A DNA stretch of 64,000 bases from Nannocystis pusilla (lineage in GTDB: Bacteria; Myxococcota_A; Polyangia; Nannocystales; Nannocystaceae). This document shows, one piece after another, positions 58,388-61,335 of this stretch (within the stretch, counting starts at the first letter, position 1; every line of letters begins with the position of its first letter). The stretch lies in the NCBI RefSeq assembly GCF_049060185.1, contig NZ_JBMEQO010000002.1; one strand, written 5' to 3'. A model generated the notes under the pieces. That model worked only from the letters and a program-made list of their open reading frames with translations. It was not told the DNA's origin and did no database searches. A program made the translations under genes and the position numbers.

Positions 58388-58470
58388 TGTGGGCATGCCT
58401 AAAGGCCATGCCCTTCGGACCATGAAAAAGGGACATGCTCGGACGAGCATGTCCCTCCGGACATTTTCGA
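58388..58470. repeat. CATG-core 14-bp repeat array, 6 units with a 13-14-bp period, between convergent genes
   Basis: CATG/CATT at 58394, 58407, 58421, 58434, 58448, 58462. Confidence 0.85.
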
Positions 58471-58480
58471 GACTACCGCC

Positions 58481-60676
58481 TCACTTCGCGCGGACCTGGC
58501 GGGCCGCCTCGCTGATCTTGCGCTGCTCCTCGGCGTCGATCACCCCGTCGCGCAGGGCCTCGTCGACCGCGCTGCGGACGGCGGCCGCGGCCCGCGAGGC
58601 CTCGGCCTTGTGGCGACCCTTCTCGGCCTGCCGCTCGGCCCGCTCGCGCGCCCGCTCGGCCCGCTCGCGCGCCCGCTCGCCCTGTTCACGCGCCCGGTCG
58701 CCCTGCTCGCGCGCCCGGTCCGCCCGCTCGCGCGCCCGATCGGCGTCCTCGCGGGCCCGGTCGGCGTGCTCGCGGGCCCGCTCGACGCCGCGGAGCGACG
58801 CCTTGACCCCGCGCTCCACGTCGGCGGCGATCTTGTCGAAGTCGATGCCCTCCAGCTCGCGCTCGATCTGCTCGTCGAGGCCCTGGAGCTGGGCTTCGAC
58901 CTGGGCCGCGATCGCCTCGGCCTGCGCCACGATCGCCTCCTCGTCGATGTCCGGCACGTGGAACACGTGCGGATGGACGGCCACGTGCGGCACGGCGATC
59001 GGCCGGACCATCACGTCGTGATCGTCGTCGTCGCAGTCGTCGTGGTCGTGCGCGACCACGACCTTGAAGCTCGGTGGGGTCGGCGGCGTCGGCGGGGTCG
59101 GCGGAGTCGGCGGCGTCGGCGGCGTCACGTGCGACACCGGCACGTACACCGCGTGCGTCGCCGGCACCGCGTACAGCCCGCTCTTGGCGCGCAGCTTGGC
59201 CGCCTTGCGGGCGTGTCGCTCGGCGCGGCGCAGCAGTCGCTTCTGCTTGCGGGTCAGCTCCTGCGCATGCTCGACGACGATGACCTCGTGCCCGTGGGCC
59301 GCGTAGTTGTGCGGCGTCCTCACCACGATCGGCGTCTCGGGCACGTGGACGAACGACAGCGTCGGCTGCGGCGCCGGCCCGTTGTCGGGCAGCGTCGGCC
59401 ACTCGGAGGCATCTTGCGTCTCGGCCGCGATCGACAGCCCGGGCGCGCCGAACGTCACCATCGCCAGCAGCGCCGCGCCGAGGGCCACCCGCCAGCGCCG
59501 CGCCCACAGGCCGCGATCGCGCAGGTGCACGTCGAGCAGGCGCTGCACCCGGCGCACCAGCTGCGAGGCGTGCCCCGCCATCGGGCTGGCGAACGCCGAC
59601 ATGTCCCGATGACCAGGCCACGCCGCGACCTCCGTCAGGCAGCGCGCCAGGTGCACCTCCGAACCGGTGTGGCGGACCGCCCAATCGTCGCACAGCTCCT
59701 CCGCCGCCTCCTGCATGCCGCGACGGGCCACGCGATTGAGCGGCTGGAAGAACAGCAGCGACTCGACGAACGCCGCCAGCACCTGCCACGCGGGATCACG
59801 GCGCAGCACGTGGGCCAGCTCGTGGGCCAGCATCGCCTCTTGCTGCCGCGGCGCCAGCTCGCGCACCTGCTCCGGCACCACGATCTCGCGGCCGGTGAGG
59901 GCGATCGGCGAGCTGATGTCCGCCGACTCGCTCAGCGTGACGCTGTGACCGGGCAGCCGCGCGTGGGCCAGCAGCCGCGTCAGCCGCTCGCGCAGCGAGC
60001 CCGAGCCGAGCAGGCGACGACCGCGGAGCCCGCGGCGCATGCGGGAGAACGACATGCCGAGCCGGCCGAGCGAGGCCGCGGCGCCGAACACGAACAGCCC
60101 CGCGAACGCCCACACCGCCGCGCTCACGCCCCCGGCCGGACCCGCGGTAGCGATCTGCATCGGCGCGGCTGCCAGCGGCGGTGCGGTCGTCGGCGCGGGC
60201 ATCGGCGCGGGCGCGACCGCCCAGCCCGGCGCGTCGACGAACAGCGGCGGCGAGGCGAACACCGCCGTGATGTCGTCGTCGCTGACGACCACCACGTGCG
60301 ACTCGCAGCCGACGCACGCGCGGGTGAACGGCACCAGCAGCGTCGCCGGCTCCTCCTCGATCACCGGCGGCGGCGCCGGGGCCGTCGTCGGCGCGCCCAG
60401 GTCCGGGCTGCTCGCCGCCACGGTGACGCGGCCGAACATCGGCTCGACCCCGAGCCCCGTCTGCAGCGTCGCCGTGAACAGCCCGCCGACCAGCGATGTC
60501 TTCCACAGCAAGCTGCGGGTCAGCGCGTCGAGCGGCAGGAAGCGGCTGAACATCCACACGCCGCCGATGAGCACCGTCGAGTGGACGAAGTAGGTGCCGA
60601 GCCAGCTCACTGTCGTGTGAGCGGCCGGCGCCGCGAGACCGGCGAGGCCGGCAGGATCGATCGCAAGATCAAACAT
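58481..60676 (-). CDS. BlaR1/MecR1-type M56 metallopeptidase signal transducer with a long C-terminal Pro-Thr repeat and a charged heptad-repeat coiled-coil domain; no PBP-like sensor domain
   Basis: Intact 731 aa; multi-TM N-terminus; HELAHVLRRDP (HExxH); (TPP)x5; ADRARE-type 7-aa repeats encoded by 21-bp tandem repeats at 58590-58760. Start overlaps the upstream gene's stop (ATGTTTGA). Confidence 0.75.
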   Translation of the reverse strand: MFDLAIDPAGLAGLAAPAAHTTVSWLGTYFVHSTVLIGGVWMFSRFLPLDALTRSLLWKTSLVGGLFTATLQTGLGVEPMFGRVTVAASSPDLGAPTTAPAPPPVIEEEPATLLVPFTRACVGCESHVVVVSDDDITAVFASPPLFVDAPGWAVAPAPMPAPTTAPPLAAAPMQIATAGPAGGVSAAVWAFAGLFVFGAAASLGRLGMSFSRMRRGLRGRRLLGSGSLRERLTRLLAHARLPGHSVTLSESADISSPIALTGREIVVPEQVRELAPRQQEAMLAHELAHVLRRDPAWQVLAAFVESLLFFQPLNRVARRGMQEAAEELCDDWAVRHTGSEVHLARCLTEVAAWPGHRDMSAFASPMAGHASQLVRRVQRLLDVHLRDRGLWARRWRVALGAALLAMVTFGAPGLSIAAETQDASEWPTLPDNGPAPQPTLSFVHVPETPIVVRTPHNYAAHGHEVIVVEHAQELTRKQKRLLRRAERHARKAAKLRAKSGLYAVPATHAVYVPVSHVTPPTPPTPPTPPTPPTPPSFKVVVAHDHDDCDDDDHDVMVRPIAVPHVAVHPHVFHVPDIDEEAIVAQAEAIAAQVEAQLQGLDEQIERELEGIDFDKIAADVERGVKASLRGVERAREHADRAREDADRARERADRAREQGDRAREQGERARERAERARERAERQAEKGRHKAEASRAAAAVRSAVDEALRDGVIDAEEQRKISEAARQVRAK

Positions 60677-61078
60677 CGTCGTGTTCCTCAGCTCCGCCGG
60701 ATCGTTCGGCCAATAGTTGTTGCAGGCGCGCGACGTCGTCCGGTAGGGCGTCGCGGCCTTCGACGAGGTGGCTGACCAGCGCCGCCACGTCCCCGCCGAA
60801 GAAGTAATCGGTGAGCCTGCCCAGCATCGAGCGCCTCACGTCCACCTCGCAGACGAGGGCCCGGTAGATGAACTGCCGGCCCTCCGTGCGGTGCGCGATG
60901 GTCCCCTTCTTCTCCAGCCGCGACAGCATCGTCGACACCGTCGTCGGCGCGAGCCCCGATCTTGCTGGACCAGAGCCGCATGCACCTCGAGCGCCGTCGC
61001 CTCCCCGCGGTCCCACAAGATCCGCAGCAGGCCGAGCTGCAGATCGCTGAGCTGGAGTACCTCACCCATGAACGACAA
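60669..61078 (-). CDS. BlaI/MecI/CopY family transcriptional repressor; frameshift near 60950
   Basis: MSFMGEVLQLSDLQLGLLRILWDRGEATALEVHAAL..., then TVSTMLSRLEKKGTIAHRTEGRQFIYRALV in a second frame; translationally coupled to the downstream M56 gene. Confidence 0.65.
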
Positions 61079-61247
61079 GCGTAGTACTACAGGTGTAGTA
61101 AGCCGTCAAGCGAGATTCTCGGCCTCTGGCGGCCTTCCAGAGCGGGAGCTCGGAAACGCTCCGACCTGCACTTTCGTACATGTCAGCCGCCATATGCGCG
61201 GTCGGCGCAGACCGTCGTCCGCCCTCCTTTAATGGGCTCGACCACCG

Positions 61248-61335
61248 CCGACGTGCTCCATTCGACATGTTCAATCGTACAGGTCCTATTCGACATTGAT
61301 ATAAGGACATTTCCAAAAGAACATGTCCCATCAAG
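61248..61335. repeat. CATG-core 14-bp repeat array, 6 units with exact 14-bp period, AT-richer variant, upstream of blaI
   Basis: CATG/CAGG/CATT/CATC at 61256, 61270, 61284, 61298, 61312, 61326. Confidence 0.8.

Follow-up and report, generated by a model that had tools for sequence, protein, structure and literature searches.

A BlaI/BlaR1-type repressor–protease operon of Nannocystis and the phased CATG palindrome arrays that flank it

A coupled repressor–protease gene pair and its candidate operator

The 64,000-nucleotide stretch of Nannocystis pusilla DNA that we analysed (hereafter the window; G+C content, 71%) contains, on its - strand, a two-gene operon that specifies a repressor and a membrane protease and that lies between two arrays of short palindromes centred on CATG. 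The upstream gene of the operon, blaI (60669..61069, - strand), encodes a BlaI/MecI/CopY-family repressor of 133 amino acids (aa) once a break in its reading frame is repaired, and the downstream gene (58481..60676, - strand) is an open reading frame (ORF) of 731 aa that encodes an M56 (BlaR1-like) membrane zinc protease. The TGA of blaI overlaps the ATG of the M56 gene by 8 nt (ATGTTTGA), and the orthologous loci are arranged alike.

Profile searches and structural comparisons were used to assign the two proteins. The frame-repaired repressor matches Pfam Penicillinase_R with a score of 102.4 bits (cut-off 22.6; E 2.4e-29) over positions 1–114 of 115, and its PDB matches are MecI, BlaI, 2k4b and the BlaI of Mycobacterium tuberculosis (2g9w). 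The M56 protein matches Pfam Peptidase_M56 at residues 192–378 (60.7 bits; cut-off 31) and carries the HEXXH zinc-binding motif in the form HELAH (residues 285–289; 59810..59824, - strand), with H285, E286, L287, A288 and H289 unchanged throughout a 24-sequence alignment. In an AlphaFold2 model built on that alignment the transmembrane (TM) helices and the protease core are confident. The best PDB matches found for the model by Foldseek are the cryo-EM structures of Staphylococcus aureus BlaR1, 8exq (E 2.3e-5) and 8exr, the second of which shares the TM-plus-protease fold (TMt 0.57, root mean square deviation 2.9 Å). The predicted layout of the protein is TM1–TM2, a loop (L2) that bears a CVGC motif, TM3, a cytoplasmic protease domain containing HELAH, TM4 and an extracytoplasmic C terminus of ~320 aa. 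The M56 protein is 89% identical to an M56 metallopeptidase of N. exedens, and its close relatives all come from Nannocystis; a look-up for a record of the exact sequence returned none. An earlier note, made from the letters of this DNA, had proposed a translationally coupled pair of a BlaI-type repressor and an M56 protease, and these findings bear out both the identity of the pair and its coupling.

In particular, the arrangement of a Penicillinase_R repressor gene upstream of, and coupled to, a gene for a HEXXH-containing M56 protease is that of BlaI/BlaR1 and MecI/MecR1 in Staphylococcus and Bacillus, and of BlaI–BlaR (Rv1846c–Rv1845c) in M. tuberculosis. The Nannocystis operon differs in that it contains neither a beta-lactamase gene nor a PBP2a gene. 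Both proteins also score far under the cut-offs of the NCBIfam models for BlaR1 and BlaI: the M56 protein reaches 23.4 bits against blaR1_generic (cut-off 400), and does so only over profile positions 159–301 of 585, the protease loop, whereas the repressor reaches 45 bits against BlaI_of_BCL (cut-off 180) and 39.6 bits against MecI (cut-off 250). The best NCBIfam match of the repressor is CopY_TcrY, with 62.9 bits, which is likewise under the equivalog cut-off of 121.95. However, the repressor differs from CopY in that it lacks the C-terminal CxC...CxC metal site and in that its partner is an M56 protease and not a copper ATPase.

The earlier note missed that blaI does not form an intact ORF in the window. 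The gene is split into ORF pieces at 61069–60959 and 60956–60672. When aligned with its intact 133-aa counterparts from N. exedens, N. punicea and N. pusilla, blaI is 1 nt short in a run of G residues at 60954..60958 (- strand; G4 as opposed to G5 in N. exedens, at alignment column ~478), and tblastn splits the match at 60959/60956.

Immediately upstream of blaI is a candidate operator for the repressor. This element, the perfect dyad TACTACA-GG-TGTAGTA (TACTACAGGTGTAGTA; 61085..61100), holds the cop box TACAnnTGTA and sits 15 nt upstream of the blaI ATG. It is the sole exact match to TACTACAGGTGTAGTA in the window; when up to two mismatches are allowed there is one more, an overlapping partial match, with ~0.05 expected by chance. 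In 431 kb of Nannocystis DNA, the dyad TACTAC-N4-GTAGTA occurs five times, once per blaI gene examined and nowhere else, and is exact before all five genes, which represent two paralogues and four species. The dyad belongs to a longer conserved block, GCTTGACG-N3-TACTAC-N4-GTAGTACTAC-N2-TGTCGTTCATG. The orthologue in N. exedens shares this block, as does the second paralogue found in N. exedens, N. punicea and N. pusilla; upstream of it the paralogues can no longer be aligned. The GCTTGACG segment is invariant in four aligned sequences and is present in L004, one of three paralogous operons (L002, L003 and L004) considered here. A conserved -35-like hexamer, TTGACG (61104..61109, - strand), lies 3 nt upstream of the dyad. 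Upstream of the Plesiocystis pacifica homologue, two ACTAC-N4-GTAG dyads flank a TTGACT.

The dyad agrees at 14 of 16 positions with the experimentally defined operator of the family, TACANNTGTA / RNYKACANNTGTMRNY (PMC7253601), and the operators of the family are TACA/TGTA dyads located at the promoter of the regulator itself (PMC7253601). Binding to inverted repeats at the regulator's own promoter is characteristic of the BlaI family, whose regulons are very small (PMC8457756). A TACA/TGTA-type dyad at the module's own promoter is a feature that the Nannocystis operon shares with BlaI/BlaR1-type systems and, with respect to the cop box of CopY/CopR, the 12 inner positions of the extended cop operator are matched by the dyad CTACAGGTGTAG. 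We take TACTACAGGTGTAGTA to be, probably, the operator of the repressor. Because the block is conserved, the TTGACG hexamer would further imply a promoter that is overlapped by this operator and an mRNA that is nearly leaderless.

The C-terminal region of the M56 protease

The M56 protein of Nannocystis differs from BlaR1 and MecR1 in having no penicillin-binding (class D beta-lactamase-like) sensor domain. Searches of residues 420–731 against Pfam and NCBIfam found no transpeptidase, penicillin-binding protein (PBP) or beta-lactamase domain, and AlphaFold2 predicts only disorder and long helices for the same residues; the statement in the earlier note that the protein lacks a beta-lactam sensor is therefore upheld. 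The BlaR of M. tuberculosis reportedly also lacks a penicillin-binding sensor domain. None of the 120 M56 homologues listed carries a transpeptidase domain, and many contain either HEAT repeats or no feature that can be recognised, so that M56 proteins without a PBP are the norm in this neighbourhood. If the topology of BlaR1 holds, the C-terminal 320 residues would be extracytoplasmic.

In place of the sensor of BlaR1 and MecR1, the C terminus consists of Pro/Asp/His-rich linkers followed by a helix of ~150 residues; structure prediction, which the earlier note had proposed for this region, thus yields disordered linkers and long helices, together with a short basic helix at residues 476–498. 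A (TPP)5 repeat, encoded at 59071..59126 (- strand; period 9 bp and 6.2 copies in Tandem Repeats Finder (TRF), and evident in the translation), lies within Pro-rich stretches that are predicted to be disordered. It is followed by an Asp/His/Cys-rich cluster, HDHDDCDDDDHD (59030–59070), which is also predicted to be disordered and is conserved in kind in the Nannocystis paralogues. The CVGC motif of the predicted loop L2 (window 60300–60330; residues ~116–124) is conserved in kind across these paralogues too. The CVGC motif and the HDHDDCDDDDHD cluster may form a metal or redox site and, because both are present, a metal or redox signal as the input of the protease is a reasonable guess and nothing more.

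The tail of the protein is encoded by a 21-bp repeat (58631..58784, - strand; TRF period 21, 7.3 copies) that specifies charged heptads of the form DRARExx. These heptads fall inside a predicted continuous helix spanning residues 579–730 (~150 residues), which AlphaFold2 models as helices at 579–609, 613–709 and 715–730 with a predicted local distance difference test (pLDDT) score of ~70–86 per 10-residue block. The (TPP)5 repeat and the charged heptads described in the earlier note are therefore both present, whereas the coiled coil it ascribed to the tail is not established, because Ala and not large hydrophobic residues occupies the would-be core positions. Pfam Alanine_zipper gives a weak match, below threshold, and the tail could just as well form a single charged helix or an alanine zipper as a classical coiled coil.

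Phased arrays of CATG palindromes

The arrays on either side of the operon are composed of units with the consensus nnGGRCATGYCCnn, that is, a 10-bp palindrome (GGRCATGYCC) and a 4-bp spacer that recur with a 14-bp period, so that an array can be written (GGACATGTCCnnnn)n. A CATG-to-CATG distance of 14 occurs 18 times in the window as against ~0.8 for other distances, and a register print revealed array units at eight window sites. By a score that sums six phased units, the upstream array reaches 65 and the downstream array 19, the latter value being lowered by two 13-nt steps; the maximum among 200 block-shuffled control windows was 3.4. The upstream array (61247..61340) lies in the divergent intergenic region, with its near edge 178 nt from the blaI ATG, and contains 6–7 units with a 14-bp period, only two of which have an intact CATG. 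The downstream array (58387..58470) contains six units, forms two hairpins and lies between the convergent M56 and YceI-like genes. Thus both of the six-unit CATG arrays reported in the earlier note are real, the upstream one with a somewhat different number of units, few of them intact, and slightly farther from blaI than the ~170 bp given there.

Further 14-bp-phased GGRCATGYCC arrays, of 2–6 units, are found in short gaps of codon-position GC signal at 4285–4385, 6691–6774, 8600–8627, 9135–9176, 11664–11747, 17990–18105 and 63938–63965. No other array in the window is as strong as the six-unit arrays at 6691 and 11664, and all eight main window arrays lie within gaps of codon-position GC signal.

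A census of arrays of at least two units in the 431 kb of Nannocystis DNA identified 185 arrays, as compared with 1–6 in shuffled sequence, and the arrays were distributed throughout the loci of N. exedens, N. punicea and N. pusilla. The period is rigid, 381 of 410 spacings being exactly 14. When one genome from each of 185,579 species was scanned for five CATG set 14 bp apart, we obtained at least 120 loci, and among the matches listed 38 came from six Nannocystis species. The 82 non-Nannocystis loci among those matches were rejected as related elements, all of them being perfect simple tandem repeats of unrelated sequence; degenerate palindromic arrays among the matches listed thus came only from Nannocystis. 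A 12-kb Plesiocystis locus contained no arrays. In N. pusilla L088, a 20-unit array (3342–3613) shows an apparent recent amplification of a 42-bp, three-unit block, and arrays may therefore grow by tandem duplication.

The arrays are not placed at random with respect to genes, whose orientation we took from codon-position GC. Among arrays of at least three units in the census sample, 43 lie in convergent gaps, 33 in tandem gaps and 4 in divergent gaps. Expressed as occupancy of non-coding gaps of at least 40 nt, such an array is present in 46% of convergent, 13% of tandem and 8% of divergent gaps; the divergent gaps are the longest, yet have the lowest occupancy.

Several observations suggest that the arrays can form hairpins. 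Complementarity between adjacent units exceeds that between random pairs of units (7.37 versus 6.88 of 12 positions; P ~0.003), and arrays fold to -30.9 kcal/mol, as compared with -27.7 kcal/mol for random concatenations of units (p 6e-4) and -29.2 kcal/mol for permutations of their own units (p 0.004). Of 22 arrays in tandem contexts, 16 fold better on the sense strand (p 0.016). Downstream of the M56 gene in particular, a hairpin of the - strand (58429–58456) begins ~25 nt beyond the stop codon, and its 14-bp stem runs into UUUUU. A 111-nt fold in this region has z = -4.96; the second hairpin of the same array faces the YceI-like gene. The hairpin and its U-tract probably terminate the M56 transcript. 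A rule-based terminator scan missed the hairpin at 58429–58456, probably as G-T pairing absorbs part of the T-run. The stop codon of the M56 gene is followed by an array in L002, L003 and L004 too, and in L004 the spacers are complementary as well, so that the stem reaches 17 bp.

The upstream array is kept at the same place in N. exedens, where its sequence has drifted more than the flanking genes have, and it is absent from the paralogous operons L002–L004. Its - strand folds to -88 kcal/mol and its + strand to -68 kcal/mol, and no conserved ORF was found around it. Between this array and the promoter lies a two-unit hairpin, GACATGTAC-GAAA-GTGCAGGTC (61160..61187, - strand), which was found as a two-unit chain and is identical in the window and in N. 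exedens. We regard the upstream array as an unusually placed copy in a divergent gap.

In several respects the arrays resemble the repetitive extragenic palindromic (REP) sequences and bacterial interspersed mosaic elements (BIMEs) of enterobacteria and pseudomonads: they are clustered, short, extragenic palindromes with stem-loop potential, specific to a lineage and concentrated at gene 3' ends and between convergent genes, and they have a high copy number, their density extrapolating to thousands per Nannocystis genome. They differ from REP/BIME elements in that a unit of only 10 bp recurs, with a 4-bp spacer, in a rigid 14-bp phase, in that the conserved core is the central CATG and the unit consensus has no 5' GTAG head, and in that the units are individually degenerate and not near-identical copies; a REP-associated tyrosine transposase (RAYT; IS200/IS605-like) was not seen either, though no search for one was made. 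The stem at 58429–58456, with UUUUU after the stop codon, is like an intrinsic (Rho-independent, including bidirectional) terminator, whereas a U-tract is missing from most arrays, whose units far outnumber those that termination of this kind needs. In our reading, the arrays are extragenic palindromes of a REP/BIME-like kind, placed at gene 3' ends, that most likely serve to terminate or protect transcripts. We came across no description of the repeat in the searchable literature: matches to GGACATGTCC were mainly p53 papers, none of them bacterial, and searches on repeats or palindromes in Nannocystis and on REP in myxobacteria returned p53 papers or unrelated work only. The p53 half-site has the same sequence as the unit consensus, RRRCATGYYY, which is, as far as can be told, a coincidence.

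Among the other features of the window, an Rfam scan of its whole length at gathering cut-offs matched no families. The divergent neighbour of blaI (61675–62398, + strand) encodes a predicted lipoprotein whose signal peptide ends in LFTGAC and is followed by a long Thr/Asp/Pro-rich linker and then a Cys-rich C-terminal domain; it has no Pfam match, and no coding signal was found in the 600-bp gap that separates its gene from blaI. Just 3' of one array is a coding tandem repeat (4491–4678) with periods of 36, 45 and 81 bp, 2–4 copies and 80–88% matches.

A probable self-repressed module and arrays outside its circuit

The combined results make it likely that the operon is a two-gene module of the BlaI/BlaR1 type that represses itself at the dyad, that the arrays are REP/BIME-like and stand outside this circuit, and that the frameshift in blaI is an error of assembly. 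By analogy with the family, a dimer of the winged-helix repressor would bind TACTACAGGTGTAGTA, which would overlap the operon's own promoter, and thereby shut off the operon. The co-translated M56 protease would receive its signal through parts that are not PBP-like, namely the CVGC motif of L2, the Pro-rich linkers, the Asp/His/Cys cluster and the long helical stalk and, on receipt of the signal, would cleave and inactivate the repressor, as its relatives do. The flanking arrays would take no part in this regulation; they belong to a repeat that recurs across Nannocystis and whose stem-loops would end or protect transcripts.

Certain findings weigh against this interpretation. With respect to the operon, we infer the operator and the promoter from conservation and from knowledge of the family, and a scan for consensus promoters did not find a sigma-70-like site. 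The Asn-Phe dipeptide in the C-terminal helix at which MecI and BlaI of S. aureus are cleaved aligns with His-Leu in the Nannocystis repressor, and so does not appear to be conserved there. In addition, a truncation of the M56 protein in N. exedens, described below, suggests that this paralogue may be decaying, in which case the frameshift could be real. With respect to the arrays, N. exedens has kept the upstream copy, which sits in a divergent gap away from any gene 3' end, and the hairpin statistics are modest. Moreover, three properties argue against a role that is purely at the level of RNA: at least four T residues in the 9 nt after the array are found for only 3–6% of arrays, which led us to reject terminators of the canonical U-tract type as accounting for the arrays in general; per-position conservation, as measured on unbiased middle units, is 93% in the CATG core and only 52–65% in the arms; and the 14-bp phase is strict.

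These same properties would be expected if the arrays acted as DNA, as phased sites for a protein that reads the CATG palindrome (such as a nucleoid or roadblock protein or a gyrase-type enzyme), with the hairpins as a by-product. The symmetry of the unit fits such a reading, as does the drift of array sequence between sister species while position and period are kept. So does the occupancy of convergent gaps, more than twice that of tandem gaps; in E. coli, BIMEs are associated with gyrase-type action where positive supercoils build up between convergent genes. However, complementarity, both between neighbouring units and over whole arrays, exceeds that of units sampled from the same consensus, the sense-strand bias in folding relies on G-U pairs, the long hairpins downstream of the M56 gene in L004 have complementary spacers, and no candidate binding protein has been identified. 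We consider it somewhat unlikely that the arrays act in this way. That some other factor reads the sequence is nonetheless suggested by the strong conservation of the core, and recognition of CATG by something else (a protein bound to DNA or RNA, an HUH-type enzyme or methylation) has to be taken seriously, either as a rival to transcript termination or protection or as a supplement to it. More speculatively, and in our estimation rather improbably, the arrays might constitute an undescribed chromosome-marking system in which a dedicated protein on phased CATG palindromes marks or insulates the ends of transcription units, for example as a roadblock terminator or by relieving supercoils between convergent genes; they would then be something other than passive hairpins of the REP type.

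A further alternative concerns the operon itself, and holds that the frameshift is real and that the operon is decaying and has no functional repressor. The reading frame of blaI is, after all, broken in the window, and the window M56 protein is short of ~100 aa that are present in the second paralogue. In addition, the N. exedens M56 orthologue ends early, at 505 aa, without the TPP repeat and helical tail, and an unrelated ORF then follows. Synteny with N. exedens (83–91% identity) likewise stops inside the M56 gene, at window position 59247 (L001 11424 in the N. exedens locus). We rejected L001:11472–12443 as the missing C terminus of that protein: it does not align, and it lies past the point at which synteny stops. 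Against decay, the blaI indel falls within a homopolymer, codon-position GC bias remains high across the coding sequence of blaI and M56, the remainder of the blaI protein is ~88% identical to that of N. exedens, and the adjoining YceI-like gene is broken in the same way. This gene (57748..58300, + strand), the convergent neighbour of the M56 gene, is frameshifted within a CCCCCGGGGG run near 58046–58056, and its frame-joined translation matches Pfam YceI across the junction. Because the YceI-like gene is also broken in a homopolymer run, and only 3 kb away, we read the break in blaI as, most likely, an assembly error, and regard a decaying operon as improbable. The two frameshifts in G/C homopolymer runs (58046–58056 and 60954–60958) lie within 3 kb of each other; the assembly probably carries indel errors, and other broken ORFs in the window call for caution.

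Finally, the model of the earlier note, in which the BlaI homologue or its paralogues recognise the GGACATGTCC arrays, the upstream one serving as operator or promoter zone, drew on the presence of ACA/TGT in the array unit and is also in keeping with the conserved position of the upstream array in N. exedens and with the good folding of the - strand across it, but it is now very hard to sustain: the conserved, family-type dyad is at the blaI promoter instead; the upstream array is missing from the paralogous operons; the 38 array-selected loci (304 kb) encode no BlaI homologue; arrays occur about once per few kb and favour gene 3' ends, whereas BlaI regulons are typically tiny (PMC8457756); and the ACA and TGT half-sites of the array unit abut, without the 2-bp spacer of TACANNTGTA.

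Viewed as a self-repressed module with arrays outside its circuit, the operon is a routine member of a large M56/BlaI group that lacks a beta-lactam sensor, and its value lies in a clearly predictable operator and in an unusual stalk-like sensor region with an Asp/His/Cys cluster. The arrays are the more useful result, being an abundant repeat that came from Nannocystis only among the matches listed and that shows a preference for convergent gene ends. If characterised, they would add a new kind of REP/BIME-like element, and they could improve the annotation of terminators and operons in very large, GC-rich genomes that are rich in natural products.

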